NCBI GenBank assembly: GCA_937896045.1
Contig: CALBKY010000031.1
Span: 1-50,324 of the forward strand
Length of the DNA stretch: 50,324 bases
Source of the DNA: an uncultured Bacteroidales bacterium
GTDB taxonomy: Bacteria > Bacteroidota > Bacteroidia > Bacteroidales > Paludibacteraceae
Direction of reading: 5' to 3'
Both the position numbers and the translations under genes were made by a program. A model generated the notes under the pieces. That model had not been told where the DNA came from. It searched no databases and saw only the letters and a list, made by a program, of their open reading frames with translations. Positions within the stretch are counted from its first letter, which is position 1. Every line of letters begins with the position of its first letter. Below are positions 18,322 through 50,316 of this stretch, piece after piece.

Positions 18322-18340
18322 CAGCAGAAAATGTTATACA

Positions 18341-19186: not shown

Positions 19187-19212
19187 TATCCTGCACTTTT
19201 GCATAAATAGCA

Positions 19213-22841: not shown

Positions 22842-22956
22842 CTACTTTTTGTATTTTCCTGCAAACGGTTGCAGAACTTTCCTGCAAAAAAGCACTTTTT
22901 ATATGTTGTGCAACATGTATTCGGGGGTTATGCTTGCGCGTATCGTAGATAAGTGG

Positions 22957-22964: not shown

Positions 22965-23039
22965 CGGGCTGTTAAAGCAGAACAAACGTTTGTTTTTTGC
23001 TCCAAAGCAGTATGTTGCAGATATAAAACGAGAATAGAC

Positions 23040-24015: not shown

Positions 24016-24828
24016 GTGTTTGTAAAAATCACCGAACAACCCTCTCTGCACGACCACCTGGACGAGAAACCTGTGGGTGAACTGCTGCGGGAGATGAACG
24101 AGGAGGACCAGAAGGTGGCGCTTGCCGTCCGTGATGTCATTCCTCAGATAGAGAAACTGGTCGAAGGTATCGTGCCGCGCATGAAGCAGGGCGGACGTAT
24201 CTTCTACATGGGCGCAGGCACCAGCGGCCGTCTCGGTGTGCTGGACGCCAGCGAGATACCGCCTACCTTTGGTATGCCCAACACCTATGTGATTGGTCTC
24301 ATCGCGGGTGGCGACACTGCCCTCCGCAACCCTGTGGAGAAAGCCGAAGACGACCCTGAAAAGTCGTGGCAGGAACTGCAGGAGCACCACATCACCCCCC
24401 TCGACACCGTCATTGGCATCGCGGCTTCGGGCACCACACCTTATGTAATAGGTGCGTTAGAGCATGCGCGCGCATTCGGGTGCCTCACGGCATCTATCTC
24501 GTGCAACCCCGATTCGCCGGTGGCGCACGCTGCGGAGATTGCCATCGAACCTATCGTAGGCCCCGAGTTCGTGACCGGCTCCACGCGCCTCAAGTCGGGC
24601 ACCGCACAGAAACTCATCTGCAATATGATTACCACCACCACCATGATTAAGTTGGGTCGTGTCAAGGGCAACAAGATGGTCAATATGCAGTTGAGCAACA
24701 AGAAACTCGTGGACCGCGGCACCCGCATGCTGGTCGAGGAACTGGGTCTGGACTACGACAAGGCGCAGCATCTCCTCCTCCTTCACGGCAGCGTGAAGAA
24801 GGCGATGGACGCCTACCGCGGAGAGTAA
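24016..24828 (+). CDS. murQ: N-acetylmuramic acid 6-phosphate etherase
   Basis: SIS domain with GRIFYMGAGTSGRLGVLDASE, PPTFG and TGSTRLKSGTAQK motifs. GTG start. Confidence 0.9.
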   Translation: MFVKITEQPSLHDHLDEKPVGELLREMNEEDQKVALAVRDVIPQIEKLVEGIVPRMKQGGRIFYMGAGTSGRLGVLDASEIPPTFGMPNTYVIGLIAGGDTALRNPVEKAEDDPEKSWQELQEHHITPLDTVIGIAASGTTPYVIGALEHARAFGCLTASISCNPDSPVAHAAEIAIEPIVGPEFVTGSTRLKSGTAQKLICNMITTTTMIKLGRVKGNKMVNMQLSNKKLVDRGTRMLVEELGLDYDKAQHLLLLHGSVKKAMDAYRGE

Positions 24829-24882: not shown

Positions 24883-24926
24883 AGCAAGGGATAAGCAAGG
24901 GATGAGCAAGGGATAGGCAATCCATA
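24883..24926 (+). repeat. 11-bp-period tandem array AGCAAGGGATA x3 (+1 degenerate)
   Basis: AGCAAGGGATA / AGCAAGGGATG / AGCAAGGGATA / GGCAATCCATA, preceded by GTCAAAC as in the copy at 45737. Confidence 0.9.
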
Positions 24927-25193: not shown

Positions 25194-25201
25194 TAACTTT
25201 G
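25194..25201 (+). promoter_or_regulatory. -7 promoter box TAACTTTG for the SusC/D locus
   Basis: TAnnTTTG match 69 nt upstream of the susC-like ATG. Confidence 0.55.
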
Positions 25202-25270: not shown

Positions 25271-28200
25271 ATGAAGAGATTATTCTTTATGCTCACCTGT
25301 CTGCTGGCGGCGGTAGCGATGAACGCTACTGTCACGGTAAGGGGTGTGGTTACTTCTGCGGAGGATAAAGAGCCTGTGATAGGTGCTTCGGTCTTGGAGA
25401 AGGGTACGACCAACGGTACCATTACCGATTTCGACGGTATGTACACGCTTACCGTGCAGGATGGTGCCACGTTGGAGATTAGTTACGTGGGTATGAAAAC
25501 CCAAGAGGTGAAAGTTACCGGCACGCAGCACAATGTCGTCCTTCAGGGCGACGCCATCGCTGTCGAGGAGGTGGTTGTTACCGCCATGGGCGTTGTCCAA
25601 GAGAAGAAACGCCTTAACTTCGCCGTGCAGAACGTAGGGGCAGACGACCTTACTGACGGTAAGTCGGCGAACATATTGAACTCGCTGCAAGGTAAGGTGG
25701 CGGGTGTAAATGTGACCACGGGCGGTGGTTCGCCTAACTCTGGCAGCCAGTTGATTATCCGTGGTGTAACCTCTATATCCTCCACGCAAACCAACGAGCC
25801 GTTGGTTATCTTGGATGGTATGCCACTTACGGGCGGTTTGGGTGATATCAACCCCAACGATATTGAGTCGGTTACGGTGCTGAAAGGTGCTGCTGCGTCT
25901 GCTCTGTACGGTCAAGAGGCTGCCAATGGCGTTTTGATGGTCACTACAAAAAGTGCTTCTGCGGGAAAACTGACTGCAACGGTCAATGGCTCTTGGCAAT
26001 TTGATACACCGGCTAACCTGATAAAGACGCAGAATATGTATATGTCCGGCTCGCAGGGTTTCTACAAGGAGCAAACCAAGAACGGTTGGGGACCTGTCTT
26101 GAACCCTGTGGGTACGACCAACCCCGCAGAGACCTACGACAATGTGCGCAACTACTTCAAGGACTATGGTTTCTACCACAAGTACGATATGTCACTGTCG
26201 GGTGGTACGGACAAGTTCCAAGCACTCGCATCGGCATCATACTCCAATGCGGAGGGTATCGTGGTGAACGACTACCGCCAGAAAGTAACGGCGATGTTAA
26301 AAGGTACGTATTCACCGAATAAGTACCTGACTATGAGCCTTATGGCAAATGTGATACACAATACCTATCGTAGTGCAGGCAGCGTGAGCGGCATCTACTC
26401 ATGGCCTATCAACGATGATATCCGCAACTACGAAACCGAAACTGGCGACATCCGTTTCCTCTACTATGCGGACGAGAAAGCCGACTCTCCTATATCTCCT
26501 CTTTATTCACGCTACCGCGATGAGGGTGTGAACAAAAGCACACGTACCTTGTTGACGGGTTTCATCACGGCAAAGCCTGTAAAGGGACTTGAGATTACCG
26601 CCCGTTTGAGCATGGACCAAAACAATTACCACTACGACGGATACACAGTGCCTCGTTTCTCTGATACCAACTTGGCTCCTGAGCAGAATATCACTGACCC
26701 GTACTTGACCCAGGAACAGTTGGATAAAATTAGCAAATCGTTGTTGGGTGAATATAGTTACTCGCAGTCTGAAGGACGCCTGTTGACAGGAAACTTGCTG
26801 GCTACCTACCATTTGGACTTGCCAAAAGATTTCGGTATGGACTTTATGGTCGGTGGAGAACTGAAAGACCGCACATCCATATCTTCGTCTATGACGGGGC
26901 GTGACTTTGTCATACCCGGGGTGTATAGTATTGGAAACACCAACTATATCAACGGCACAGATGATGTCAAACTCACACACACACAACGGCGTAGTGCAGG
27001 TGTCTATGGAGAGATACGCGGCGACTATAAGGGAATTGCTTCGCTCTCTGTTACTTCGCGTTGGGACTGGTCATCTACATTAGCAATGGAGTATTGCCCG
27101 TATTGGTACCCCTCTGTAACAGGTGGTTTGATTCTCTCAGAGTTGATTCCCGGGCTGAACGAGACCAAGGATAATTGGTTCTCCTACTGGAAGATACGTG
27201 GCAACTTCGCTATGGTAGGTAAAGATGCACCGGCTTACTTGATGGACCGCCGTTTCACGCAGTACGCTACATTGCCTGATGGTGGTTATGGCGCAAATGC
27301 CAGTGCCAGTGTTGGTGCCGACATCAAACCGGAAATATCCAAGTCTTGGGAGATAGGTACGGACATCCGCTTCTTGAACAACAGGCTGCGTATGGACCTT
27401 GCATATTACAGCCAAGCCACAGAAAACCAAATCGTTACTGTGCGTGTCAGCCATGCTGCGGGCTATGTGCTCCAGACGCGCAACGAGGGTAGCGTCAAGA
27501 ACCAGGGTATGGAGTTATCGTTGGACGGCGACATCATCAAACAAAACGGTTGGTTGTGGACGATGGGTGTGAACGTAGGTTTCAACCGTGGCGTGGTGAC
27601 AGCCTTGCCTGAAGGTATGGTCGAGATACAGGGTACACAGTATGGGGACATCTTCCCGACGGCTTACCTCAATGGTAGTACCACCGCTATCTCGGGTAAA
27701 GACTATGCACGTACAGAGGATGGTAAAATCATCTGCGATGAGAACGGCTATCCTACTATCAACCCATCCAAGTCGGTACTTATTGGTAACCGCGAACCGT
27801 TGTTCTCTGCAGGTCTCAGCACAATGCTCAAGTACAAAGGTTTCTCTCTCTCATTGCAGTTCGACGGACGTGTAGGCGGTGAGGTGGTCAACGTAACTGG
27901 ACGCGGATTGTGGTCAAGTGGTATGCACTCTGCCATTCCGCAATACCGCGGACGACAAGTGGTATGGGATGGTGTAGTGGCTGCCGGTACGGATGCGGAC
28001 GGTAATACTATCTACGAGCAGAATACCAAACCGATTGTATTGGACGCAACTACGCTCACCAACTACTACTACAACGTATCGTCCAATTTCTTGGAGGATG
28101 GCTCCTACATACGTCTGCAATATGCTACAATTGCGTATGACTTTGCTCCAATGCTCAAGAACGTCAAGGGTATTGAGGGCATAAAACTCTCATTCACAGG

Positions 28201-28351
28201 CACAAACCTGTTCCTGCTCACACGCTACACGGGCTCTGACCCGCAAGTGAATGCAGATACAAGTAAAGCAGGTGTGGGTGCTGCAGGTGTGGACAACTAT
28301 CAGATACCTAACACACGCGGTTTCAATATGGCGGTGCAAGTTACATTCTAA
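25271..28351 (+). CDS. SusC/RagA-family TonB-dependent outer membrane transporter
   Basis: Signal peptide, carboxypeptidase-regulatory-like domain (VRGVVTSAEDKEPVIGASV...TDFDGMYTL), plug and barrel, and a C-terminal aromatic residue (..VQVTF). There is no N-terminal STN domain. Confidence 0.95.
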   Translation: MKRLFFMLTCLLAAVAMNATVTVRGVVTSAEDKEPVIGASVLEKGTTNGTITDFDGMYTLTVQDGATLEISYVGMKTQEVKVTGTQHNVVLQGDAIAVEEVVVTAMGVVQEKKRLNFAVQNVGADDLTDGKSANILNSLQGKVAGVNVTTGGGSPNSGSQLIIRGVTSISSTQTNEPLVILDGMPLTGGLGDINPNDIESVTVLKGAAASALYGQEAANGVLMVTTKSASAGKLTATVNGSWQFDTPANLIKTQNMYMSGSQGFYKEQTKNGWGPVLNPVGTTNPAETYDNVRNYFKDYGFYHKYDMSLSGGTDKFQALASASYSNAEGIVVNDYRQKVTAMLKGTYSPNKYLTMSLMANVIHNTYRSAGSVSGIYSWPINDDIRNYETETGDIRFLYYADEKADSPISPLYSRYRDEGVNKSTRTLLTGFITAKPVKGLEITARLSMDQNNYHYDGYTVPRFSDTNLAPEQNITDPYLTQEQLDKISKSLLGEYSYSQSEGRLLTGNLLATYHLDLPKDFGMDFMVGGELKDRTSISSSMTGRDFVIPGVYSIGNTNYINGTDDVKLTHTQRRSAGVYGEIRGDYKGIASLSVTSRWDWSSTLAMEYCPYWYPSVTGGLILSELIPGLNETKDNWFSYWKIRGNFAMVGKDAPAYLMDRRFTQYATLPDGGYGANASASVGADIKPEISKSWEIGTDIRFLNNRLRMDLAYYSQATENQIVTVRVSHAAGYVLQTRNEGSVKNQGMELSLDGDIIKQNGWLWTMGVNVGFNRGVVTALPEGMVEIQGTQYGDIFPTAYLNGSTTAISGKDYARTEDGKIICDENGYPTINPSKSVLIGNREPLFSAGLSTMLKYKGFSLSLQFDGRVGGEVVNVTGRGLWSSGMHSAIPQYRGRQVVWDGVVAAGTDADGNTIYEQNTKPIVLDATTLTNYYYNVSSNFLEDGSYIRLQYATIAYDFAPMLKNVKGIEGIKLSFTGTNLFLLTRYTGSDPQVNADTSKAGVGAAGVDNYQIPNTRGFNMAVQVTF

Positions 28352-28387
28352 ACAACTATGACAATTCATTTAATAAGGAACAATAAT

Positions 28388-30244
28388 ATGAAACGAGTTC
28401 TATATACATTGTTGAGTGCAGTAGTATTGGCTACTTCTCTCACAGGGTGCGAAGATTGGATGGATGTCAATACATCCAAAGATGCACCTGTTACCGTAAC
28501 TTGTGAAGAGGTGCTGCCCTCAGTGCTGTTCTTTGCATGCCAGGGAGTGTACGACTTTGCCGAGTATGGCACATATCTCAGCCAATGTCTTACCACAGGC
28601 GGTAAGGCGCAGACCTCTACACTCCCTTACAAGAACGGTTGGGGCGGGTTTATGGAGATGAACCGTCACCCGCAGTGGCGTCGCCACTACTACGATGTAG
28701 GTGTGAACGCACAATATCTGATTGCAGATGCCGAGGAGAAAGGAGCGCGCAACTATGTTTTGGTCACTCGGACCCTTCTGCTCAACTCACTGATGTTAAC
28801 CACTGACCTCTTTGGTGAGATGCCGCGTTCTCAGGCATACCAATCGAATAACCCTGCCTATGACACGCAAGAGGAAATCTATGCCTATATGGAGCAGGAG
28901 TTCCAAGACCTCATTGCTCTCTACAACGACCCCGAATGGATAGAGTGCCCTACCAATACGGCAATGAACGCAAAGCGCGACCGTATGTATGCAGGTGATT
29001 TGCTCAAATGGCGTGCATTCACCAAGGCTCTTTACTGCCGTTTCTTGGTACGTCAGATACCTAACTGGAACAATACCGCTGAGGTGCGCAACAAAATCAT
29101 CACGCTTGTGGACGAGGTACTCGCAGATCCCGATTGGGCAGAACCACTCTACAAGTTCGATGGCGGTGTAGCCGAGCAGAACTGCCAATGGGGACCGTCT
29201 ATGCCTAAGATGAACCTCGGTTGGGCGCAGGCACGCGAAAACTTATTGAAGTCTGCTATGCCTTCCACATTCTTCGCTAGCATACTCGGCTTCTATCCGA
29301 AAGCCACGAAGACGGCCAATTCTGTTAAGTACAACGGAGAGAAAGTGGAGTCGGGTACTATCTTTGCCCTGGACCCGCGTGCTACACGCATGATGCATTA
29401 CCGTAAAGACAATGAAGGGAAAGGAGACCCTGCTATGCGTAGTCTGCGCAACAACATAGGTATGGATGTCTCTATGAAGGAGACTTATTATCCTGATTTG
29501 TATTGCACGACCAACAAGGATTCTGTCATGAATACCTACAAATCCAATCCTTACACACGTGACGACGGCTATATTGCTTTCATCACAGAAGAGGAGTTGC
29601 TCTTCATCAAGGCTGAGGCGCAGTATTGGAGCAACAATAAAGCCGAGGCTTACAACACCACCAAGCAGGCAGTGGAACGCAGTTTCACTCGCTATGGCGT
29701 ATACGGCAACATGGGCGACCCCGACAAGGTAAATGAGGCAGGCTTGATAGATTTCTTCTTCCGTATACGTATGCCCGCGGATAATTTCACGATTGCTACA
29801 TTGATGCAGCAGAAGTATGTGGCTTTGTATCTGCAACCGGAGCAATGGTGCGATGTCCGCCGCTACAACTATAGCAGTTCCTCCAACGGCATTCAGTACG
29901 ACAATGTATATGTCTATGACATCGCCAACGTGTACAATCAAGGTAAGACGGGAACTGTGAAGGAAGACAATTTCAGCGAGACGTTCGAACTCACACGCCC
30001 TTATAATATCTACGAGGCACAATGGATGACAGACAAGGACATAGTCGGCGGCAAACTTACTGCCAATGCGTGGGTAAACCGTATATCGGCTGACCCGGAG
30101 ACCGAAGAGAAGTACAACAAAGCAGAGTTGGAACGCATCGGAGCATACAAGAATCCCGATTGGCTGCGCAAACGTATGGTTTGGCAACGTAACACCAACT
30201 CGAATGGGGCTATCACAAGCACCGGTACAGGAACGTGGATGTGA
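28388..30244 (+). CDS. SusD/RagB-family outer membrane lipoprotein
   Basis: Lipobox LTGCEDWMDVN, a helical TPR-like composition, and a position immediately after susC. Confidence 0.9.
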   Translation: MKRVLYTLLSAVVLATSLTGCEDWMDVNTSKDAPVTVTCEEVLPSVLFFACQGVYDFAEYGTYLSQCLTTGGKAQTSTLPYKNGWGGFMEMNRHPQWRRHYYDVGVNAQYLIADAEEKGARNYVLVTRTLLLNSLMLTTDLFGEMPRSQAYQSNNPAYDTQEEIYAYMEQEFQDLIALYNDPEWIECPTNTAMNAKRDRMYAGDLLKWRAFTKALYCRFLVRQIPNWNNTAEVRNKIITLVDEVLADPDWAEPLYKFDGGVAEQNCQWGPSMPKMNLGWAQARENLLKSAMPSTFFASILGFYPKATKTANSVKYNGEKVESGTIFALDPRATRMMHYRKDNEGKGDPAMRSLRNNIGMDVSMKETYYPDLYCTTNKDSVMNTYKSNPYTRDDGYIAFITEEELLFIKAEAQYWSNNKAEAYNTTKQAVERSFTRYGVYGNMGDPDKVNEAGLIDFFFRIRMPADNFTIATLMQQKYVALYLQPEQWCDVRRYNYSSSSNGIQYDNVYVYDIANVYNQGKTGTVKEDNFSETFELTRPYNIYEAQWMTDKDIVGGKLTANAWVNRISADPETEEKYNKAELERIGAYKNPDWLRKRMVWQRNTNSNGAITSTGTGTWM

Positions 30245-30276
30245 TTGTAAAACAGACTATGGCAATTTCTATGAAT

Positions 30277-31128
30277 ATGAAAGCAAGTAAGTATATAGCA
30301 ATACTGATGATAGCAACGGGCGTGATGACAGCGTGCGACAAGCACGACTCGTTGGACGACCAAGTATTTATCGGCAAGATGGCACCGCAGGTGTATTGGG
30401 AGGTACCCAGTACCACGGTATCTGCCGGCGACGATGTGGCGTTTAGTGCGCAGTATTATACCACAGGTGATAGACCTGTTTCCTATTGCGAGGTGTGGTA
30501 CAACACCATCGAGACGGAAGACAAACAAGTGTCCGCTCCGTGGGTAACATGCACCACCTACTCTATAGTGTCTTCTTCTGTCACCGAACGTATGACGGAG
30601 AGTGGCACACAGGTCAAGTATATGCACGATGAGGCAAACTGGAACGCCAAACAACGTGCTTACCAGTTCAAGGCTACGTTCCCGACTTCCTACACCAAGA
30701 GCAAGACCGAATGGAAGAACAAAGAGTGGGACTCTACATTGGTAGTGCGCTACTTCGGAGAGAACTTTATGCAGCACTTCAAGGATAGTTTGGAGACTAT
30801 CTTGAAAGCCGATTTGGATAAGTCCTACGTGGACTACAAGACTCTATATATCGCCAAGGGGGGAGATGAGCGTATCTTCATCAGCCAATATACCGATTCT
30901 GCCTTTAACGACAACACCCAAACCTACGACAAGTTCTTCAAGAACCATGAATTGCCGGCTGCTGTTGACTCACTCTATCAGGCTTGCACCTTTGGTGATT
31001 TGATTGACAGCAAAGGCGAGAAGAGCATCTCTTACAAAAAGCAGTATTCACTCAAGGCTACCCTGCGTTGTTACGATGACCAAGGCACTTATGGATTTGC
31101 ATTGTACAAAGAAATAAAACTCAACTAA
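30277..31128 (+). CDS. Surface lipoprotein, unknown function (SusE/F position)
   Basis: Lipobox VMTAC. No recognisable catalytic motif. Confidence 0.8.
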   Translation: MKASKYIAILMIATGVMTACDKHDSLDDQVFIGKMAPQVYWEVPSTTVSAGDDVAFSAQYYTTGDRPVSYCEVWYNTIETEDKQVSAPWVTCTTYSIVSSSVTERMTESGTQVKYMHDEANWNAKQRAYQFKATFPTSYTKSKTEWKNKEWDSTLVVRYFGENFMQHFKDSLETILKADLDKSYVDYKTLYIAKGGDERIFISQYTDSAFNDNTQTYDKFFKNHELPAAVDSLYQACTFGDLIDSKGEKSISYKKQYSLKATLRCYDDQGTYGFALYKEIKLN

Positions 31129-31143
31129 TACGAAACCGAGAAT

Positions 31144-32805
31144 ATGAAACGTATATCGATAGCAATAATGGCAATCCTGCCGCTCTTCTTGGCAGGGTGC
31201 AAAGACCACATCATCAAAGAGGAGACACTCCCCGAAGGGGCTATCAACTTTGCCTATGAGGTCATCAACGATACGGTTTACAATCTGGACTACTATGCAG
31301 GTTGCACGGTGCGTTTCTACCCCACGGTAGCACTTACCACCGATTGCGATTGGCAAATCAGCGACGGTCGCTCTTTCACAGGAGTGGATACGCTGGTATG
31401 CAAGTTCCCTGTGGCAGGCAACTTCACGGTTACTGCTACAGCTAATGGCGGTAAGAAGACCAATCCTATTGAGATTGCGGACATACGTCCTATTGTGCGT
31501 ATCGTACAGACCGACTCTGTTTGTGTTGTGGATAGTTCGTATATCAGTTTCGATGTCGAGTTGCCGAACCCCGACAATTTGGAGGCTGTATATCAGTGGA
31601 CATTCCCCGGTGTGAAAGACGAGGCAGGACAGGAACTCTCTGTCTTCGAGGGACAAGACCCCGGCAAGATACGGTTCACCAAGTCAGGGTCTCAACCCAT
31701 CAAACTGCAGGTTCTGCTTGGTGGACGGGCATTGGACCTCGTAACACGCAATGTGCAGGTGGCTCTCAAAGACCCCGCTCCCACATTGTATTATGCCGTC
31801 AAGGAGGGCAACATCATGGCACGTAAACTGACCTCCGTTACAGGGGCGGAACCCTACAATATGGGGGTGGCTTCGGGAGAACATCCGTTCAACCTCTTGT
31901 TTGCAGAGTCATCTCTGTATATCCTGGATGCCGGCAAGCAGTTCAACTATGTCAACGACGAGAATGGCGTATTGGGCGATGGGCAAATCACAGTCATGGC
32001 AGCGGACGCATCTACTTTTTCCACTGTCATCAGCAACGTGGGTGGTCCTGCTTTCCAAGACCCGTTCTATGGGTGCATTGATGGTGGTAAACTTTACTAT
32101 TCTGACCGCAACACGGGTATCTTCTCCATACCTCTCTCCACGCGTAATCAGGTATGGAGCAAGGATGCTTACCCGTATTTCGTACAGAACGCGCAACTTG
32201 GCTACTACAGCCGTGGACTTTCCTATGGTGCTATCACGGGCTGCTTCGGCAAGGTGGAAGGCACTTGGTATTGGGCAAAAACATTCAATGGAAACGGTAT
32301 CTGGCGTTTTGTGGATGCCGACATTCTGCCAGATGCGAACTCTTACGAGAAAGCCACTGCACCTACGGCAGGTAGCATACTCACTTCTTTCTATACGAAA
32401 GCATTTGTGTACGATGCACAACGCAAAATGTTCTACTTCTCGCTCTACGATATGGCGGCAGGCGTGTATGGGTTGCCTTACGAGAAGGTGATAGATGCCG
32501 ACTTTATGAAGTCGTTGGCTTCTGCTTCCGACTTGGCTCCTTATCAGTTGGGCGACATCGCTATCACACCGATTGTGGAAAAAGGCAAAGGCGAAGGTTC
32601 CGATGGCGAATATATCGGTATATGCCAGATGGCTGTGGATGAGGCTACGGGAGATGTCTATTTCGCATATCGTGCAGCCGATAAGACGCAAAGTGGATTG
32701 TATCGCTACGACGCGGCTTCCAAGACGTTGAGCCTTATCGCCGACACACAGGGGACAGACATCTACGGTGTCGCTATCAACCAGCAGCCTACACAGTTGT
32801 TCTAA
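31144..32805 (+). CDS. Surface lipoprotein with a PKD-like Ig domain plus a beta-propeller-like C-terminal region
   Basis: Lipobox LAGC. A PKD-like stretch (FTVTATANGGKKTNP). Recurring blade-like motifs (LYYAVKEGNI, LYILDAG, KLYYSDRNTGIF, MFYFSLYD, DVYFAYR, GLYRYD). Confidence 0.8.
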   Translation: MKRISIAIMAILPLFLAGCKDHIIKEETLPEGAINFAYEVINDTVYNLDYYAGCTVRFYPTVALTTDCDWQISDGRSFTGVDTLVCKFPVAGNFTVTATANGGKKTNPIEIADIRPIVRIVQTDSVCVVDSSYISFDVELPNPDNLEAVYQWTFPGVKDEAGQELSVFEGQDPGKIRFTKSGSQPIKLQVLLGGRALDLVTRNVQVALKDPAPTLYYAVKEGNIMARKLTSVTGAEPYNMGVASGEHPFNLLFAESSLYILDAGKQFNYVNDENGVLGDGQITVMAADASTFSTVISNVGGPAFQDPFYGCIDGGKLYYSDRNTGIFSIPLSTRNQVWSKDAYPYFVQNAQLGYYSRGLSYGAITGCFGKVEGTWYWAKTFNGNGIWRFVDADILPDANSYEKATAPTAGSILTSFYTKAFVYDAQRKMFYFSLYDMAAGVYGLPYEKVIDADFMKSLASASDLAPYQLGDIAITPIVEKGKGEGSDGEYIGICQMAVDEATGDVYFAYRAADKTQSGLYRYDAASKTLSLIADTQGTDIYGVAINQQPTQLF

Positions 32806-32824
32806 TCAACCAATATAGAATACA

Positions 32825-35371: not shown

Positions 35372-35398
35372 ATTTAACCAATTAAAAACAAACAACTT

Positions 35399-37882: not shown

Positions 37883-37902
37883 ACCAATTTTAGTTCGTTA
37901 CG

Positions 37903-37968
37903 TTATCGAGTCTTTATCGGGTTATTAACGGGTTGTTATCGGGTTATTAACGGGTTGTTCCCGTGAGC
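37903..37968 (+). repeat. 11-bp-period array TTATCGGGTTA / TTAACGGGTTG (22-bp unit x2 plus degenerate flanks)
   Basis: Read directly in the 134-bp gap between the 35399 gene and the first NAGPA gene. Confidence 0.85.
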
Positions 37969-38016
37969 ATACCGATACCCTCACCATAGATTAACCGATG
38001 TACAAAACTTGAAACA

Positions 38017-40368: not shown

Positions 40369-40373
40369 TACGT

Positions 40374-42695: not shown

Positions 42696-42703
42696 GTCAT
42701 ACT

Positions 42704-45700
42704 ATGAAACGTATCTTTACTCTTTTTGCCTGCACGGCTCTCTGTATCTTTGCTAATGCCGACATCCGTGTTGTCAGCAATACCTCACTTGGCAAGGGCT
42801 ACTATCCCCGTTTTGCAGACGACCAAACCATCACCTGTTTCTCCGAGGAGAACGCAGGCTACGATGCTGTCATCTCTGGTGAAGCCCTGCGCGTGGACAA
42901 CGAGGACCTTACCCTCAACCTCTACCGCAACGGTGTCAAGACCGTCCTCACACCTCACGGCACCGATGTCAACTATATCTGGGCATCGCTTTCGCCTAAC
43001 AAGCAGTATATCCTGTTCAATACCATGCGTGGTACCGCTGTCTGCGACCTACGCGGGCGTGAGATTATCAACTTCGGTAAGGGCTTGGATGCCCCCGTAT
43101 GGTATGGCAACGACTACATCGTAGGTATGAACGACTGCTCCGACAGCCACCAATATACGGCATCGTCTATCGTCATTGCCTCCATAGATGGCACCATACG
43201 CCAAACACTCACCGACCCCGCAGAGTTCGGTATGTACCCCGCAGTGGACGCAGTCTCAGGACGCATAGCATACAACACCCTTGATGGTGACATCCGTATG
43301 CTCCAACTCAACCTCACCGAGCAACCCGTTCGCCGTCAAGCACCTGCGCTCAAGACACTACGCGACTCACGCTCCAAGATGTTTGCTGCGCAGCGTCGTC
43401 GCGCGGCAACCGATGCCAAGCCTTCCGATTTCCGTATCTACATCAATCCGGGGCACGGCGGATACACCAGCGACGACCGCAATATAGTTATCTATCCTTT
43501 TGCACAGGGTGATACCCTTGGTTTCTATGAGAGTACTTCCAACCTCCACAAAGGTCTCAAACTTGATACCATGCTTCGTGAACTCGGCTTCCAAACCAAG
43601 ATGTCGCGTGTGCTCAACCGCGAGATTGACGACCGCGAACTCTCGGCTATCGTAGAGGAAGCCAATGCATGGAACTCCGACTATATGCTCTCCATCCACT
43701 CCAATGCGGGCGGACCGTCCAACTATGTCCTCATGCTCTATGCTGGTATCGACCTTGATGACACGCAGCAGACGTATCCTACACCCACTCCCTGTTCCGA
43801 TGAGAGCCGCGAAATATCTACCCTTATAGGCAACTATTTCTGTGAGAACGGCATCACTACTTGGACATCTTCTGTGCCTCGTATCGCCGGTGACAAGACT
43901 TTCGCCCGCACCGCCATGGGCTGGAGCAACGGTTATGGTGTCCTCCGCGGTCTCCGCGTACCGGGTGTTATCTCCGAGGGCTGTATGCATGACTACCACC
44001 CCGAGACCTATCGTCTCATGAATATGGACTACAAGTACAAGGAGTCTTTCTATTTCCGCAAGGTCTTCCTCGAGTATTTCTGCCATACAGGTATGCCCAC
44101 GGGTGCTATCGGCGGTCAAGTGCGCGATGCATTCAACAAGATGCTCTTCCCCGCTATCACCAAGATTCGTAACTCGCGCGACGAACTCCTGCCCATCGAC
44201 CGTGCTACGGTTGACTTGCTCAAGGATGGTAAGAAAATTGCTTCTTATACCACCGACACCCTCTACAATGGTGTGTTCTTCTTCTGGGATTTGGAGCCGG
44301 GCGAATATACCCTCCATGCCGATGTGGACCACTACTACACTATGGACACCACCATCACCGTCGTGGCGAACACCATCGTTTACCAGGACATGATGCTCCA
44401 GATGCGCCGTGAGACACGTCCCGAGGTCACTTCCTACAGCCCCAACGTTGCCATTACCGACAGTGTCAACGTGGCTGAACCTATCATCCTCAATTTCAAT
44501 TGGGATATGTGGGAAGAGCCTACTCGCAAGGCATTCTCTATCTCGCCCGCTGTTGAGGGGACCCTCACTTTCGAGAACTCGCAGCGCACCCTCCGTTTTA
44601 CCCCCAAGACTGTCTATGCGCCCGACACTGAGTACACCGTTACCCTTGTCAAGACGGCGGCACACCCCGATACCAACTACCCCAACACCCTTGCCGAGGA
44701 CTTCACTTTCCGTTTCCGCACCAAGAACCGTCCTTGCCTGAGCGTCATGCAGACCTATCCCGCAGAGGGCGAAACGGGCATAGACCTCAAGCCGTCTATC
44801 TTCATGCTCTTCGATGAGAAACTGCACTCGGCATCTAATTACAAACTTTTCTCCATTGCCAACGATAGCAGTGTTGTCTTTGTACCTGCTTCCCGCAACT
44901 TCAAGAAGAACACCGTGGATGCTCCCTATGGCTCTGTGAAAATTGATGTTACCACCGAGTTGCAGCCCAATACGCAATACAAAGTGGTAGTCGAACCTAC
45001 TGTCAAGGATACCGACAATATCATACTCTCCACTCCCTTTGTCTTGAATTTCACTACCGGTAGCGGAGCCGTAGCGGACAAGGAGGGTGAACTCATCATG
45101 TCCCTCGATGATGTAGCCTTCTCCGTAGAGCCTGATAAGACGACGGCACTCCAAGACAAGACGATTCGCACCGGTGGTTCTACCAAACGCACCGAGGGTA
45201 CAGGTTCCAACGATATTATCTATACGTTTGACCCCGACGAACCCGATGCGCAACTATTCCTCAAGCCGCTTGACCTTACGCATATATTCACTTCGCGCGA
45301 CAAATTGGTCATAGATATCTATGGTGATTTTACCATGAACGATGTCTATGCCGAGTTCTCCACTGCGGGCGATATCCATACCTACAAACTCTGCAACCTC
45401 GACTTCATAGGTTGGAAGACTGTCACGCTTGATTTGAGCCAAACCGACCTCCCCGTGGGTGTGGACTTCCAGTTCACTGGGTTGAGTATCGTACGTACCT
45501 CCGTGCAGCCAATCCTTTGCAACACAGGCGAAATCTTCCTCGACCGTCTCGCTATTGTCAAGGGACAAAACACCGCAGTGGATGATGCCCCACAAACCGA
45601 TTCTGCTAATGCGGCAACCTACGACCTCTTGGGGCGTCCTGCCACCGCGAAGCAACCCCGTCAGGTGTATATCCAAAACGGAAAGAAACATATTATTAAC

Positions 45701-45706
45701 CAATAG
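42704..45706 (+). CDS. Multidomain N-acetylmuramoyl-L-alanine amidase (Amidase_3) with a propeller-like N-terminus, CarboxypepD_reg-like and SbsA-Ig-like domains, and a T9SS-type tag
   Basis: Amidase_3 core at about 43430-44000 (IYINPGHGG...LSIHSNAG...GVISEGCMHDY). The C-terminus is YDLLGRPATAKQPRQVYIQNGKKHIINQ. Confidence 0.8.
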   Translation: MKRIFTLFACTALCIFANADIRVVSNTSLGKGYYPRFADDQTITCFSEENAGYDAVISGEALRVDNEDLTLNLYRNGVKTVLTPHGTDVNYIWASLSPNKQYILFNTMRGTAVCDLRGREIINFGKGLDAPVWYGNDYIVGMNDCSDSHQYTASSIVIASIDGTIRQTLTDPAEFGMYPAVDAVSGRIAYNTLDGDIRMLQLNLTEQPVRRQAPALKTLRDSRSKMFAAQRRRAATDAKPSDFRIYINPGHGGYTSDDRNIVIYPFAQGDTLGFYESTSNLHKGLKLDTMLRELGFQTKMSRVLNREIDDRELSAIVEEANAWNSDYMLSIHSNAGGPSNYVLMLYAGIDLDDTQQTYPTPTPCSDESREISTLIGNYFCENGITTWTSSVPRIAGDKTFARTAMGWSNGYGVLRGLRVPGVISEGCMHDYHPETYRLMNMDYKYKESFYFRKVFLEYFCHTGMPTGAIGGQVRDAFNKMLFPAITKIRNSRDELLPIDRATVDLLKDGKKIASYTTDTLYNGVFFFWDLEPGEYTLHADVDHYYTMDTTITVVANTIVYQDMMLQMRRETRPEVTSYSPNVAITDSVNVAEPIILNFNWDMWEEPTRKAFSISPAVEGTLTFENSQRTLRFTPKTVYAPDTEYTVTLVKTAAHPDTNYPNTLAEDFTFRFRTKNRPCLSVMQTYPAEGETGIDLKPSIFMLFDEKLHSASNYKLFSIANDSSVVFVPASRNFKKNTVDAPYGSVKIDVTTELQPNTQYKVVVEPTVKDTDNIILSTPFVLNFTTGSGAVADKEGELIMSLDDVAFSVEPDKTTALQDKTIRTGGSTKRTEGTGSNDIIYTFDPDEPDAQLFLKPLDLTHIFTSRDKLVIDIYGDFTMNDVYAEFSTAGDIHTYKLCNLDFIGWKTVTLDLSQTDLPVGVDFQFTGLSIVRTSVQPILCNTGEIFLDRLAIVKGQNTAVDDAPQTDSANAATYDLLGRPATAKQPRQVYIQNGKKHIINQ

Positions 45707-45743
45707 TACCCCATGTTCTCTCCAACCGTTCCTTGTGTCAAAC

Positions 45744-45776
45744 AGCAAGGGATACGCAAGGGATGAGCAAGGGATA
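45744..45776 (+). repeat. 11-bp-period tandem array AGCAAGGGATA x3
   Basis: AGCAAGGGATA / CGCAAGGGATG / AGCAAGGGATA, preceded by GTCAAAC. Same family as 24883 and 1841. Confidence 0.9.
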
Positions 45777-45832
45777 CAAAAGCGAAACCGATAAAAAACT
45801 TATAATCTATTAACTCTTAAAAAACAAACATT

Positions 45833-48800
45833 ATGAAGAAAATCTTTAGTCTCCTTGTTGTCGCTTTGGCAACAATGACGCTCTCCGCGCAGACCTTCAA
45901 GGTCACGTGGAATCTTGATGGTGGTTGTGCTAACCCGATGTGTGCTAACGACAAAGATGAGTTGTATAGTGCACTCAATGCAGACGTGAACGCCTTTTAT
46001 GGTTGGACTGCTGATTGGGGCAAGGTAAGCACATTTACCGCCGTTACAGAAGGTATGCCCTCTAAGGCAGGAAAATTTGACCTTACATTCTTTGCTGACC
46101 CTGCAATGAAGAATAAGTGGGGTTGGTTGCTTGACTATTGTGATGCGACTTGTGCTTCTCAAAAGGTAGGTGCAGATGGTAAAGACCTTGTTGCTCCGAG
46201 CAGCAATGCAAGTTATATGCGCTACAACATCAATGCGTTCTTCACCAACTTGGTACGTGCTAGTTGGCCGGTGTCCGCAGATTATAAGGATTGTGGTGTA
46301 GATGCTACAGATAAATGGATGGCGGCTTGGAAATATACATACAACTATCCCGAAGAAGTTGCTGCTTCCTATATATTGCCTACACCTATTAAAAAAGGTT
46401 ATACATTCCTTGGTTGGTTCAATGGTGAGAACAAAGTGGAGGCTATCTCTGCAGACACTGCTCTTACTGCTAAATACGAGGCTATTCAGTACAAGGTTAC
46501 TTGGGACCTCAATGGCGGTGTTTCTTCTTTGCTGAAAGGCTTAGACAAGGACGCTTTGTATAGTGCACTCAATGCAGACGTGAACGCCTTTTATGGTTGG
46601 ACTGCTGATTGGGGCAAGGTAAGCACATTTACCGCCGTTACAGAAGGTATGCCCTCTAAGGCAGGAAAATTTGACCTTACATTCTTTGCTGACCCTGCAA
46701 TGAAGAATAAGTGGGGTTGGTTGCTTGACTATTGTGATGCGACTTGTGCTTCTCAAAAGGTAGGTGCAGATGGTAAAGACCTTGTTGCTCCGAGCAGCAA
46801 TGCAAGTTATATGCGCTACAACATCAATGCGTTCTTCACCAACTTGGTACGTGCTAGTTGGCCGGTGTCCGCAGACTATAAAGATTGTGGTGTGGATTCA
46901 GAGGGGTGGAAATCTTATTTGGAGTTGCCTGCTACTGTTACAATTGACCAAACACTACCTACTCCGTACATGCTGGAATACAATTTCTTGGGTTGGTACA
47001 ATGGCGATACAAAGATTGAACATGTGGATGCGGATATGACTCTTACAGCAAAGTGGGAGCGTGCTATCTACAATGTAACATTTGTTGCTCCATTTGCATA
47101 TCCTAACCCGTTGTTTGCTGGTAACAAGGATATGATGTATGCAGAACTCAATGCAGATTACAACACATTCTATGGAGTAGAAACCGATTGGGGTGTATTG
47201 AGTACGTTTACTGCTGTTACAGAAGGTATGCCCTCTAAAGGTGGCAAGTTAGACCTCACTTTCTTCGCAGATAGTATGGTGGTTGATGGAGCAAAGACCC
47301 TCAATCCGATGAGTGTTAAATGGGGCTGGTTGCTTGAATACTGTGACTCTATTTGCGCTCGCCAAAAAGTAGGTGCAGATGGTAAAGACTTGGTTCTTCC
47401 GAGTACCAATGCAAGTTATGCACGTTACAATGTGAATGCGTTTTTCACCAACTTGGTACGTGCTAGTTGGCCGGTGTCCGCAGACTATAAGGATTGTGGT
47501 GTGGATGCAAAGGACCAAGAATGGAAGAAATTCTGGGGCTATGATTTTGTAATGCCGGACACCATTGTAGAGGACTACACTCTGCCTGTTATGTATCGCA
47601 AAAACTACGAGTTCAAGGGCTGGTATTGGAGCGAAGATTTCTCTGGAGACGAGGTGAAAGTAGTTCCTGTTAAGACGAATGGTTCTGTATATGCTAAATT
47701 TGAGGCTACAGATAAAGCACTTCTCGGTATTGCTCTTGACAAGAAAGATACAGTAGAGTTGCAAATGCCTGCAACTGACCAACTGACGGTTATCTACACT
47801 CCGGAAACGGCAGTTAATAAGAAAGTTGTTTGGTCTTCTTCCGACGAGAACGTATTGGTTGTTGACCAAAATGGTCTGGTGACACCTATGGCTCCCGGTA
47901 AAGCAACGATTAAGGTGGTATCTGACGAAAGCAAATTGGAGGCTTCTGTTGTTTACAACATCACTGCAGCCCCGGGTGCTGTCACAGGTGTTACGCTTGA
48001 CCAAACAAAGGTTACTTTGGATATGGGCAAGACGCTTCAACTCACTGCTACCATCGCTCCTGAAGATGCTACCAACAAGAAAGTTAATTGGACTTCCGAT
48101 AGCAAGGCGGCTTCTGTGGACGAGAACGGTCTTGTTAAGGCTGATACTATAGGTACTGCTACTATTACTGTTACTACTGAGGATGGTGGCTACACTGCTA
48201 CTTGCGTGGTTACCGTTCCTGAGCCTCTTGATGACATCGTTGTAGAGAAACTTTGGGAGGTTGCTATTCCTTCTACTGTGGCAAACATTGGTGATGTACG
48301 TAATGGTATGGGTTGGAATGGCAAATTCTATCTAACAGATAAGAAACAAAACAAGATTCGTGTGTTCTCTCAAGCAGGTGAAGATGCTGACGCTGCTATT
48401 CCTATGGCAGAAGGTGCTAATCTGGGTACAGGTATTGCTATTGATGACGCAGGAAACATTATCGTAAATGCAAACTTCCCGAGCGCAGATACTTGTGTTT
48501 ATATTGTGAAGAATGGCGAAACCAAGATGACAAAGATAGACTTTGCTTCTATGGGTGGTCGTTGTGACCATATCACTGCCTTTGGAGATGTGTTCTCTGA
48601 AGAAGGTGGATTAGTATTCTTCTATGCTCAAAACAAGGGACCTCAATATGTGAAGATATCCAAAGGTGAATTTGTGAAGAAAGATACCATAAAGGGAACA
48701 TTTACTCATAGTTCACAAGGACAAGCCCAAATTATTTATGGAACAGAAACAGAGTGTATTGCAAGCCAACGCGGTTCATTTGAGCATATGGTTGACGGAA

Positions 48801-50230
48801 TACTTGTTCCTCATGATGCGAAGAATATCGTTCTCAATGATGTGGGAGGTGCCGTTATGAATATCGGGGGCGAGAATGTTTGGGCCTATAAAGTCGGAAA
48901 TAATGGTGGTAAGGCCCATAGTTCAGAGTTCTCTATCCGCAATGTGACGACTCATCGTTTTGTGGCAGATAAGAATGGAGAAACCGTTCAATATGTTATT
49001 GACAACAAGCAAGATGCCTCGGGTAATTCTTGTGGTATTTTTGCTAAGGCTGAAAAGATAAATGAGTATGCATACTATTTGAATGTATTCTCTTCTCCTA
49101 AGGGTGCCGCTGTTTACAAGGTGTACAAGAATGTGCCTGTTGAGAGCATTGTCCTTGACAAGACGGCAGAGACCGTTAAGGCTGGCGACAAACTCCAACT
49201 CACGGCTACTATCACTCCTGCTTATGCTACCGTTCAAGACGTAGAGTGGAGTACATCTGACTCGGCTGTTGCTATCGTGGACCAAAACGGTCTTGTACAG
49301 GCTGTCAGCGCAGGTGAGGCTACTATCACCGCTACTACCAAAGACGGCAACCATACTGCTACTTGCACGCTCACCGTCAAGGCTGTTCTCTACAAGAAAG
49401 CTACTTCGGCAGAGCAACTCATTGCCGGCAAGAAGATGCTTATCGTCAACGGCGACTCTATCACGATGGCGGAAGCACGCACCAACAATTTCGGTTCTGT
49501 GGCTGTCACTCCTAATGAAGACGGCGTGATTGACAACGTACCCGCTGAGGCTACGGTCATCACATTGGAGAAAGACTCGGTATTCTCGTTCGCAATTGAT
49601 GGCGGCTATATCACTGCCACCACTGCTGGTTCCAACTATCTGAGAGTTGATAAGGAGCGTACATCACTCACAGGTTGGGATATTACGATTGCCGAGAACG
49701 GTGCGGCGGGTATCGTATGCCATGACCCCGAATCGGAACGCAATACTATCCGTTTCAACGAGAACAAGGGCAATCCTATCTTCTCTGCTTACAAGGCAGA
49801 TAATAAGATGGAAGATGTTGCTATCTACATTGAGTTTGAGCCTGTTACCTACAACGTAACTGTGCCTGCCGGAACGAATATGTGCTACATCGTAGGTGCT
49901 ATGACCGACTCATGGACGCAGTTCGTAGAGATGGAAATGGTGGACGCTACCCACTACACCATCACGCTTGACAATGCTGCCAAGACAGACGAGTACAAAT
50001 ACACTTGCGGTCCTGACTGGAAGTATGTAGAGAAGAACGCTGACGGCTCCGAGCGCGGCAATCGTACCTGGGCTGAGCAGGATGTAGTAGAGGCTTGGGC
50101 TGAAATCTACAATGCAGTAGAGGACATCCATATTGATGCTAACACCATCGAGAAAGTCATCATCGACGGTAATCTCTACATCATCCGTGGCGGCAAACTC
50201 TACAACGCCAACGGTGCCGTAGTCCGCTAA
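45833..50230 (+). CDS. Giant secreted protein (1465 aa): 3 split Listeria-Bacteroides repeat modules, 3 Big_2 domains, a propeller-like domain, a CBM-like domain, and a C-terminal tag
   Basis: Signal peptide. Modules at about 45893-46480, 46481-47060 and 47061-47706. Big_2 signatures (VVWSSSDENVLVVDQNGLVT, VNWTSDSKAASVDENGLVKA, VEWSTSDSAVAIVDQNGLVQA). It ends DGNLYIIRGGKLYNANGAVVR. Confidence 0.85.
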   Translation: MKKIFSLLVVALATMTLSAQTFKVTWNLDGGCANPMCANDKDELYSALNADVNAFYGWTADWGKVSTFTAVTEGMPSKAGKFDLTFFADPAMKNKWGWLLDYCDATCASQKVGADGKDLVAPSSNASYMRYNINAFFTNLVRASWPVSADYKDCGVDATDKWMAAWKYTYNYPEEVAASYILPTPIKKGYTFLGWFNGENKVEAISADTALTAKYEAIQYKVTWDLNGGVSSLLKGLDKDALYSALNADVNAFYGWTADWGKVSTFTAVTEGMPSKAGKFDLTFFADPAMKNKWGWLLDYCDATCASQKVGADGKDLVAPSSNASYMRYNINAFFTNLVRASWPVSADYKDCGVDSEGWKSYLELPATVTIDQTLPTPYMLEYNFLGWYNGDTKIEHVDADMTLTAKWERAIYNVTFVAPFAYPNPLFAGNKDMMYAELNADYNTFYGVETDWGVLSTFTAVTEGMPSKGGKLDLTFFADSMVVDGAKTLNPMSVKWGWLLEYCDSICARQKVGADGKDLVLPSTNASYARYNVNAFFTNLVRASWPVSADYKDCGVDAKDQEWKKFWGYDFVMPDTIVEDYTLPVMYRKNYEFKGWYWSEDFSGDEVKVVPVKTNGSVYAKFEATDKALLGIALDKKDTVELQMPATDQLTVIYTPETAVNKKVVWSSSDENVLVVDQNGLVTPMAPGKATIKVVSDESKLEASVVYNITAAPGAVTGVTLDQTKVTLDMGKTLQLTATIAPEDATNKKVNWTSDSKAASVDENGLVKADTIGTATITVTTEDGGYTATCVVTVPEPLDDIVVEKLWEVAIPSTVANIGDVRNGMGWNGKFYLTDKKQNKIRVFSQAGEDADAAIPMAEGANLGTGIAIDDAGNIIVNANFPSADTCVYIVKNGETKMTKIDFASMGGRCDHITAFGDVFSEEGGLVFFYAQNKGPQYVKISKGEFVKKDTIKGTFTHSSQGQAQIIYGTETECIASQRGSFEHMVDGILVPHDAKNIVLNDVGGAVMNIGGENVWAYKVGNNGGKAHSSEFSIRNVTTHRFVADKNGETVQYVIDNKQDASGNSCGIFAKAEKINEYAYYLNVFSSPKGAAVYKVYKNVPVESIVLDKTAETVKAGDKLQLTATITPAYATVQDVEWSTSDSAVAIVDQNGLVQAVSAGEATITATTKDGNHTATCTLTVKAVLYKKATSAEQLIAGKKMLIVNGDSITMAEARTNNFGSVAVTPNEDGVIDNVPAEATVITLEKDSVFSFAIDGGYITATTAGSNYLRVDKERTSLTGWDITIAENGAAGIVCHDPESERNTIRFNENKGNPIFSAYKADNKMEDVAIYIEFEPVTYNVTVPAGTNMCYIVGAMTDSWTQFVEMEMVDATHYTITLDNAAKTDEYKYTCGPDWKYVEKNADGSERGNRTWAEQDVVEAWAEIYNAVEDIHIDANTIEKVIIDGNLYIIRGGKLYNANGAVVR
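45962..46281 (+). repeat. 320-bp perfect direct repeat, copy 1 (copy 2 at 46556-46875)
   Basis: The offset is exactly 594 bp (198 codons). The identical antisense ORF translations in the track (45800-46162 and 46541-46756) confirm the identity. Confidence 0.95.
46556..46875 (+). repeat. 320-bp perfect direct repeat, copy 2
   Basis: See copy 1. The first mismatch is at 46282 versus 46876 (T versus C). Confidence 0.95.
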
Positions 50231-50270
50231 ACCTATTGCCCGAAAGGGATAATAGAACCATACAAACAGA

Positions 50271-50316
50271 AGAGGCTGTCTAACAATGCAAAGTTGTTGG
50301 GCAGTCTTTTGTTTTT
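50271..50316 (+). terminator. Intrinsic terminator of the locus
   Basis: AGAGGCTGTCTAACAA(50271-50286)/TTGTTGGGCAGTCTTT(50294-50309) with G-U pairs, followed by TGTTTTT. Confidence 0.7.

Follow-up and report, generated by a model that had tools for sequence, protein, structure and literature searches.

A conserved SusC/SusD gene cluster of Bacteroidales with features of a candidate peptidoglycan utilization locus

We analyzed a 50,324-nt stretch of DNA (the window) from an uncultured Bacteroidales bacterium of the Paludibacteraceae (assembly GCA_937896045.1, contig CALBKY010000031.1, forward strand) and concentrated on a run of ten co-oriented genes at positions 25271 to 50230 of the + strand. 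The open reading frame (ORF) listing of the window agrees with an earlier reading of this DNA (the original prediction) on these genes and their coordinates, and hidden Markov model (HMM) scans with Pfam and NCBIfam bear out most of the domain models that it had named (PF02638, PF09992, PF01520, Big_2, and Flg_new). The genes encode, in order, SusC, SusD, lipoproteins 1 and 2, a GHL10 enzyme, a protein that we call p6, two NAGPA-type proteins, an Amidase_3 protein, and p10; they are listed here with the flanking transcription signals, and the classes of C-terminal tail are described below.

25194..25201 (+): Bacteroidota −7 promoter box TAACTTTG, 77 bp 5′ of the SusC ATG
25271..28351 (+): SusC/RagA TonB-dependent transporter (TIGR04056, 635 bits; signature TIGR04057; Plug and CarboxypepD_reg domains)
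28388..30244 (+): SusD-like lipoprotein, lipobox LTGC; 28388 is the likely true start
30277..31128 (+): lipoprotein 1 (p3), lipobox MTAC; 30277 is the likely true start
31144..32805 (+): lipoprotein 2 (p4), lipobox LAGC, with a PKD-like N terminus and a propeller-like C terminus
32825..35371 (+): GHL10 enzyme of the Cwp19/DigH family, carrying Fn3/Ig-like domains, a Sec type-I signal peptide, and a class-2 tail
35399..37882 (+): p6, with a split InlB B-repeat, β-barrels, a DUF4623-like β-propeller, a linker, and a class-1 tag
38017..40368 (+): NAGPA1 (PF09992, 92 bits), with EGGGS in place of DGGGS at approximately residues 356 to 360
40365..42695 (+): NAGPA2 (PF09992, 80 bits), with an intact DGGGS and a class-1 tag
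42704..45706 (+): multidomain Amidase_3 protein, with a PD40-like N terminus, the amidase, a CarboxypepD_reg-like domain, two Big_5 domains, and a class-2 tail
45833..50230 (+): p10 (1465 residues), with three p6-type split InlB modules, three Big_2 domains, further β domains, and a class-1 tag
50270..50310 (+): intrinsic terminator 3′ of p10, with an 18-bp stem and a T-run

Intergenic spacing within the run is −10 to 27 bp, apart from two larger gaps of 134 bp (p6/NAGPA1) and 126 bp (amidase/p10). Promoters were sought with the Bacteroidota box TAnnTTTG; one such −7 box precedes SusC, and none was found on the + strand of either larger gap. A single promoter serving all ten genes, as had been proposed, is plausible on these features. 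A scan for sigma-70 promoters, which has no meaning in Bacteroidota, performed at chance level and was set aside. An adjacent SusC/RagA-type transporter and SusD-family lipoprotein, with the GHL10 gene and two lipoprotein genes in the same short-gap run bounded by one box and one terminator, identify the cluster as a Sus-like polysaccharide utilization locus (PUL).

To place the locus among its relatives, we read the gene neighborhoods around SusD homologues of ≈50% identity and checked orthology by BLAST (individual loci carry L numbers here). The ten-gene order is identical in five Muribaculaceae-type species, one of which lacks NAGPA1, with 65 to 100% protein identity for all products other than p10. 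An eight-gene core (SusC, SusD, a lipoprotein of ≈285–370 residues, a PKD lipoprotein of ≈555–590 residues, GHL10, a p6-type protein, NAGPA, and Amidase_3 with Big_5) is also found in uncultured Paludibacter, Paludibacteraceae metagenome-assembled genomes, and other Bacteroidales, at 34 to 53% protein identity. To this core, p10 and the second NAGPA have been added in particular lineages.

The SusD assignment is upheld by a profile search of the PDB despite the lack of any match to the current Pfam-A release; a profile of the protein with 23 homologues retrieves ≈20 solved SusD homologues, of which 3p1u is the best (E = 4.7e-15). Stored annotations for this protein and its relatives give PF12741/PF12771, and strong homologues number more than 2,118. 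Because the current Pfam release misses it, automated PUL callers that use current models could miss the whole locus family. Lipoprotein 1 harbors no known domain in Pfam scans and has an orthologue of 39% identity at the equivalent position in Paludibacter (BLAST). The orthologues of lipoprotein 2 bear PKD/PKD_4 domains, that of L010 being 46% identical, and a phmmer search of the PDB with this protein returned no match. Both lipoproteins are probable surface binding proteins.

The GHL10 enzyme (PF02638, 197 bits) belongs to the YddW/DigH family, as originally predicted, and its nearest characterized relative is Clostridioides difficile Cwp19 rather than DigH. The catalytic domain aligns with Cwp19 (PDB 5oq2) with 41% identity over 303 positions (E = 1.8e-70) and keeps nine of the 11 residues of the pocket proposed for that enzyme (PMC5765458), namely (Cwp19 numbering) Trp36, Gln77, Trp127, Arg132, the DDY triad Asp195, Asp196, and Tyr197, Gln295, and Tyr297; Ser250 is replaced by Gly and Gly328 by Ser. 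Cwp19 degrades peptidoglycan to lytic-transglycosylase products and lyses Micrococcus cells in zymograms (PMC6016235), and Escherichia coli DigH is a glycosyl hydrolase that functions in daughter-cell separation, after amidases have stripped the peptides from the glycan backbone (PMC12288456). From this family-level biochemistry, the locus enzyme would be expected to cleave glycan strands made up of MurNAc (N-acetylmuramic acid) and GlcNAc (N-acetylglucosamine). Both relatives act on the cell's own wall, Cwp19 being held on the Gram-positive wall by CWB2 repeats and DigH being a periplasmic lipoprotein, whereas here Fn3/Ig-like modules and a secretion tail are joined to the GHL10 domain, which is encoded within a nutrient-uptake operon.

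The predicted Amidase_3 domain is likewise present (40.8 bits for PF01520, whose gathering cut-off is 27) and is accompanied by two Big_5 domains. The motifs PGHGG, YES, SIHSN, and ISEG, which would supply the His/Glu/His zinc ligands and the catalytic Glu, can be recognized, and the Glu and the second His align with those of CwlV (1jwq), with a pairwise E of only 0.14; the orthologues in L014 and L015 are annotated with PF01520. As a member of this family, the enzyme would strip stem peptides from MurNAc.

Human NAGPA (the "uncovering enzyme") cleaves GlcNAc-α-1-P-6-Man, and the linkage units of teichoic acids are GlcNAc-1-P-6-MurNAc. The original prediction of two NAGPA-type phosphodiester glycosidases stands as far as two PF09992 proteins are concerned; the role ascribed to them, release of phosphodiester-linked wall polymers, is speculative and would follow by analogy alone. 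The two proteins share 39% identity over their full length, and a match to the bacterial DUF2233 structure 3ohg (E = 6e-6) is listed for NAGPA2. They share PF09992 with the human enzyme and with 3ohg, and NAGPA2 also keeps the DGGGS loop; they differ from human NAGPA in carrying extra bacterial Ig-like and C-terminal β domains and, for NAGPA1, in having EGGGS. This substitution is found in NAGPA1 of all five species having the paralogue (L008 lacks it), and DGGGS is kept in NAGPA2 and in every single-copy orthologue. The DGGGS sugar-phosphate loop is the one strictly invariant motif of the NAGPA family (PMC13474241).

p6 was modeled from an alignment with AlphaFold (AF2; predicted local distance difference test [pLDDT] 86, predicted template modeling score 0.80). 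The "split-repeat" that had been read from its sequence is recovered in the model, in which an InlB B-repeat (approximately residues 20–235) is interrupted by a helical insert of ≈150 residues; β-barrel domains (≈240–420), a β-propeller (≈425–786), and a disordered linker (790–800) follow, and the C-terminal tag forms three short strands. The propeller is the portion of p6 conserved in distant loci (BLAST), and the best Foldseek hit for p6 was 4ftd, a DUF4623 propeller whose function is unknown, with only generic propellers besides; phmmer with p6 against the PDB gave no match. The N-terminal module (35450–36112 in p6) is repeated three times in p10 (45890–47710) at ≈31% identity, and Pfam finds three Big_2 domains and Flg_new (Listeria-Bacteroides/InlB B-repeats) in the latter. 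The split module models at pLDDT 94 with no significant Foldseek neighbor in the PDB, so that neither Foldseek search gave a hint of function, and an InlB B-repeat with a helical insert may be an uncharacterized domain. p10 is 42 to 66% identical between species, whereas the remaining proteins of the locus are 65 to 100% identical (both against L004 to L008), and it is not present in the Paludibacteraceae loci L014 and L015; it is an adhesin-like addition, lineage-specific and evolving fast. We can propose no catalytic site in p6, p10, or the two lipoproteins, which are most simply viewed as binding or scaffold components.

The genes directly 5′ of SusC are those of MurNAc catabolism.

20803..22794 (−): NagB-LmbE fusion (NF002557, 984 bits; PF01182 and PF02585), divergent from murK
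22860..22873: palindrome TGCAAACGGTTGCA, resembling a LacI-type operator, between the divergent nagB and murK genes
22981..22994: another palindrome, AACAAACGTTTGTT, lying between the −7 box and the start of murK
23040..23900 (+): MurK-type MurNAc kinase; the ORF is listed from 22953 and the likely start is MILIADSG
24016..24828 (+): MurQ, MurNAc-6-phosphate etherase (NF003915, 374 bits; TIGR00274, 317 bits)

These assignments, which agree with those first made, rest on strong family matches, and for MurK on a score of 298 bits to the Tannerella forsythia MurK structures 8oqw/8ow9 (the alignment starts at residue 30) versus 217 bits to the GlcNAc-kinase paralogue. NagB-LmbE combines a glucosamine-6-phosphate deaminase-like domain with a PIG-L deacetylase domain, and its position is retained in L011, L012, L013, and L017. 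A MurK-MurQ pair lies directly 5′ of SusC in six of the seven distinct loci for which the upstream side is visible (the window, L011, L012/L013 counted as one, L016, L017, and L018; the exception is L010). The MurQ-SusC gap is just 73 bp in L016, and in L018 a NagA gene and a SpoIID-family gene are added beside SusC. A GT2 glycosyltransferase gene (19317–20741, − strand) stands beside nagB-lmbE and murK-murQ and is kept in L011 (182–1645), L017 (1247–2704), and L018 (4218–5573); the Tannerella namZ1-murTKQ cluster similarly has two glycosyltransferases, whose role is unknown.

A second copy of the −7 box TAACTTTG is found at 22957, in front of murK. The palindrome TGCAAACGGTTGCA is the sole match in the window to TGCAAACGTTTGCA at two or fewer mismatches, and AACAAACGTTTGTT contains the sole perfect 10-bp core CAAACGTTTG in the 50 kb. 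In L011 and L017, the perfect 14-bp TGCAAACGTTTGCA, which we take to be an operator of the LacI-family type, has precisely two copies in each ≈22-kb locus, one in the control region of nagB/murK and the other immediately 5′ of SusC (4902 and 6724 in L011; 4911 and 6790 in L017). The sharing of this palindrome by murK and SusC speaks for a single regulon, made up of the MurNAc genes and the SusC/D locus, in these two genomes. The statement that the locus has no dedicated regulator holds for the locus itself, and no regulator for these palindromes was found within any fetched locus; the palindromes nonetheless point to a regulator, encoded elsewhere, that would control the adjoining murK and nagB genes. 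The MurQ-SusC intergenic region also has three tandem copies of GCAAGGGAT(A/G)(A/G) at 24884–24920, with short TTAATGG-type repeats 3′ of them, and the equivalent site in L012 and L013 has other short tandem repeats, of the CTTCTAATCTTCCAAC type.

As predicted, Sec type-I signal peptides, in place of a lipobox, can be read from the sequence at the start of all six products that are neither Sus proteins nor lipoproteins, and several of these have a Gln just past the predicted cleavage site. The "short conserved C-terminal tag" ascribed to them proved to be not one motif: the tails are conserved and fall into several types of 22 to 45 residues. An HMM of the first type (class 1, ≈40 residues, with the pattern ..VENV.. 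x8-15 ..K.I.NGQLYIIRNG..YN.LG..VK) recognizes three of the six tails, those of p6 (60.4 bits), NAGPA2 (60.2 bits), and p10, and leaves the other three unrecognized. Of these, GHL10 and the amidase end in a common class-2 tail (YDLLGRP..hYIQNGK), and NAGPA1 carries a third variant. Class 1 recurs in a secreted protein encoded elsewhere in the window, near PorW/SprE, a type IX secretion system (T9SS) gene that had been reported nearby and scores accordingly.

3006..5210 (+): 734-residue secreted protein with a class-1 tag (HMM, 49.5 bits), 1.8 kb 5′ of PorW/SprE; no family match in Pfam or NCBIfam
5088–5207: its class-1 tag
6980..9709 (+): PorW/SprE T9SS lipoprotein (NF052312, 662 bits)
37760–37879: class-1 tag of p6
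42570–42692: class-1 tag of NAGPA2
50108–50227: class-1 tag of p10

Comparison with the other loci reveals how these tails relate to known T9SS signals. In L010, L011, and L017, the orthologues of GHL10, the p6 core, and NAGPA end, at equivalent positions, in type-A C-terminal domains (CTDs; PF18962) of ≈80 residues. In the Paludibacteraceae loci L014 and L015 all four are short-tailed (approximately [TS]x[VL]E[ND][VI], 8–15 residues, K.I.NGQ.YI..NG..YN..G..V), and L012 has a canonical CTD and a short tail within one locus. An exhaustive search with the tag profile retrieved 12,107 representative proteins with an E cutoff of 0.001, a number that falls to 1,130 at E ≤ 1e-10 (these counts are from the exhaustive search; a word-indexed database search gave contig-end fragments only), and in all 150 of the 150 best matches the tag lies no more than one to two residues from the extreme C terminus. 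The 68 full-length carriers that were scanned harbor InlB B-repeats, BspA-type leucine-rich repeats, CBM26/X25, Big_2, β-helix, Fn3, and CBM77 domains, and Por_Secre_tail is not among their 25 most-matched families; this is the domain repertoire expected of surface or secreted proteins. On this sequence evidence, the tag is a real and widespread family of the C-terminal sorting type for which there is no existing model, and it would replace the CTD on orthologous cargo. From the CTD-bearing orthologues, the presence of PorW, and the sorts of proteins on which the tag is found, we infer that the T9SS reads it. The last 22 residues of one CTD are enough to secrete green fluorescent protein (PMC10202324), so a signal this short is conceivable.

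We propose, with moderate confidence, that the locus is a peptidoglycan (murein) utilization locus that serves Sus-like scavenging of other bacteria's walls in the gut. MurNAc-containing material, i.e., peptidoglycan, appears the best-supported substrate because of the likeness of GHL10 to Cwp19, the amidase motifs, the MurK-MurQ linkage, and the shared TGCAAACGTTTGCA palindrome; the proposal thus draws on family-level biochemistry and conserved gene linkage. Surface or secreted enzymes would be out of reach of the cell's own periplasmic wall, and the substrate should therefore be exogenous. In the scheme that we envisage, the six signal-peptide proteins would cross the outer membrane and reach the cell surface or the medium, directed by a sorting tag at the C terminus and most likely via the T9SS, and p6, p10, and the two lipoproteins, to judge from fold and domains, would retain wall fragments at the surface. 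Amidase_3, which has the recognizable motifs of its family, would take the stem peptides off MurNAc, and GHL10, with its conserved pocket, would then cut the glycan strands to oligosaccharides as Cwp19 and DigH do; one or both NAGPA enzymes may, by analogy, free GlcNAc-1-phosphate-linked secondary polymers from MurNAc. SusD and SusC would bind and import the oligosaccharides, as is typical of their families. After further breakdown by enzymes encoded outside the window, MurK would phosphorylate MurNAc, MurQ would convert MurNAc-6-phosphate to GlcNAc-6-phosphate, and NagB-LmbE would feed glycolysis, these last steps corresponding to strong family assignments. A bolder version, in which many gut and rumen Bacteroidales share a wall-eating regulon whose surface-displayed amidase, GHL10, and NAGPA enzymes take foreign sacculi apart, cut the GlcNAc-1-phosphate link between teichoic-acid-type polymers and MurNAc, and are exported by an unrecognized minimal C-terminal signal of ≈40 residues that stands in for the canonical T9SS CTD on thousands of proteins, is offered tentatively, and we hold it to be rather doubtful.

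The peptidoglycan interpretation originally put forward is partly supported: the Cwp19 likeness, the conserved core, the MurK-MurQ linkage, the shared operator, and the SpoIID and NagA genes of L018 strengthen it, and its T9SS, NAGPA, and regulator components are weaker. Several observations count against it. PF18962 and TIGR04183, the latter a model that the original prediction had listed for checking, matched neither the full proteins nor the isolated tails, even at E ≤ 10, and hhalign comparison of the tag profile with the canonical CTDs of the orthologues gave a probability of 0.3%. We had provisionally equated the tag with CTD motifs D and E and dropped this idea because of that hhalign result. 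T9SS export consequently has the CTD-bearing orthologues and PorW in its favor and lacks both a CTD model match and a profile-profile match. As to the enzymes, the Amidase_3 score is modest, the whole amidase has no phmmer match in the PDB, and its pairwise PDB comparisons are nonsignificant; NAGPA1 has lost the invariant Asp, and we found no documented bacterial substrate for NAGPA in the open-access literature. The GHL10 member DogH from Deinococcus is reported to be active on starch (PMC9967864), and the specificity of the family may be heterogeneous. As to the pathway, Pfam and NCBIfam scans of the window ORFs yielded neither a NagZ/NamZ-type exo-glycosidase nor an inner-membrane transporter for MurNAc or disaccharides, and AnmK, which would be needed if GHL10 were a lytic transglycosylase, is not in the window. 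Finally, L010 lacks the MurQ linkage, and a LacI-type operator was looked for 5′ of SusC in the window and not found.

Other readings of the same genes have to be set against peptidoglycan utilization. The main substrate could be some other GlcNAc-1-phosphate-linked polymer (wall teichoic acids, secondary wall polymers, capsules, fungal phosphoglycans, or host glycans), in which case the NAGPAs would be the key activity and GHL10 would act on something other than murein. NAGPA does belong to the conserved core and has two copies here, the starch activity of DogH hints at mixed GHL10 specificity, and no GH23, GH25, GH73, or GH171 domain occurs among the scanned window ORFs; yet Amidase_3 is likewise in the core, the MurK-MurQ linkage points to MurNAc specifically, 41% identity to Cwp19 is closer than a divergent specificity predicts, and SpoIID is colocated in L018, so that we regard this reading as unlikely. 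The large, fast-evolving, adhesin-like p10, with its identities well below those of the other locus proteins, would fit target recognition by a contact-dependent or secreted bacteriolytic weapon against neighboring (Gram-positive) bacteria, with uptake secondary; the enzymes are secreted or surface proteins of murein-active types, and lysis of Micrococcus by Cwp19 points the same way. However, p10 is missing from most relatives, no immunity or toxin-type genes were seen, and the core always has SusC/SusD and is tied to catabolic genes, with a shared operator in two genomes, which is a signature of nutrient acquisition. A weapon is, in our view, a quite unlikely primary function.

MurK and MurQ are orthologous to those of the Tannerella scavenging cluster (preprint 10.1101/2021.12.02.470905), and the GT2 gene beside nagB echoes the glycosyltransferases of that cluster. 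These similarities invite an anabolic reading, in which salvaged MurNAc and GlcNAc would go into building the cell's own wall, as happens in T. forsythia, a MurNAc auxotroph, and not into energy. But MurQ and NagB are catabolic steps, and the window showed no bypass genes of the AmgK/MurU type; we give this reading little weight. The clusters namZ1-ampG-murT-murK-murQ of T. forsythia and amiE-nagZ-namZ-murQRP of Bacillus subtilis do resemble the locus in their MurK/MurQ orthologues, adjoining glycosyltransferases, and the pairing of amidase with glycan cleavage. They employ exo-acting NamZ/NagZ/AmiE and the inner-membrane transporters MurT/AmpG or those of a phosphotransferase system, whereas NamZ (GH171/DUF1343), NagZ, AmiE, MurT/AmpG, and MurP are all absent from the scanned window ORFs and the locus has SusC/D import, GHL10, NAGPA, and large binding proteins instead. 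Self-directed activity on the envelope (in division, turnover, or vesicle formation), with SusC/D recapturing the released fragments, is the least credible proposal and we rate it as highly improbable because the orthologues are T9SS cargo and are thus outside the periplasm. DigH, Amidase_3, and SpoIID families are classically housekeeping wall remodelers (PMC12288456), but multidomain binding modules and pairing with SusC/D are untypical of housekeeping hydrolases, and the operon is PUL-like.

Returning to peptidoglycan utilization, the locus shares with Sus-like PULs, of which the Bacteroides thetaiotaomicron starch system is the archetype, SusC/SusD, surface lipoproteins, and enzymes in one operon with catabolic genes near. 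It departs from them in that GHL10, Amidase_3, and NAGPA replace the classical plant and host glycan hydrolase families, in that its enzymes carry C-terminal sorting tails and are not lipoproteins, and in having no hybrid two-component system, extracytoplasmic function sigma, or SusR-type regulator. In this second respect it approaches the T9SS polysaccharide degraders (Flavobacterium johnsoniae ChiA and the cellulases of Candidatus Paraporphyromonas polyenzymogenes; PMC5831590; PMC10202324), which likewise combine nonlipoprotein, C-terminally signaled enzymes with SusC/D; PorW in the window and type-A CTDs on the orthologues add to this likeness. The tails differ, at 22 to 45 residues versus ≈80, and show neither a CTD model match nor similarity to the type-A profile. 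In the open-access literature we found no SusC/D locus with GHL10, NAGPA, or MurQ and no characterized peptidoglycan PUL, in line with the earlier statement that no characterized locus has a like composition. The locus is a widely conserved and experimentally tractable PUL with an uncharacterized substrate class and enzyme set.

Peptidoglycan ranks with the most plentiful gut polymers, and NOD1/NOD2 signaling in the host is driven by its fragments. If the proposal is true, common gut and rumen Bacteroidales would have a route for recycling the necromass of bacteria and for altering the pool of muropeptides, and the locus would for the first time place bacterial NAGPA-type enzymes, and GHL10 beyond remodeling of the cell's own wall, in a physiological context. 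The short tag would matter for prediction of Muribaculaceae and Paludibacteraceae secretomes and for defining minimal T9SS recognition.

Two further observations concern individual relatives. The Paludibacteraceae locus L014 has a second, shorter GHL10 gene (18185–20089; 634 residues) 3′ of the amidase, with a tail (..YDIMGRFV..GVFVIIQDGE..) that resembles the class-2 tail of the window. L008 (CAVEZM010000014.1), although titled "Acidaminococcaceae bacterium," has a complete Bacteroidales SusC/D locus, with identities of ≈74 to 91% for all products but p10 (66%), and this contig is probably misbinned.

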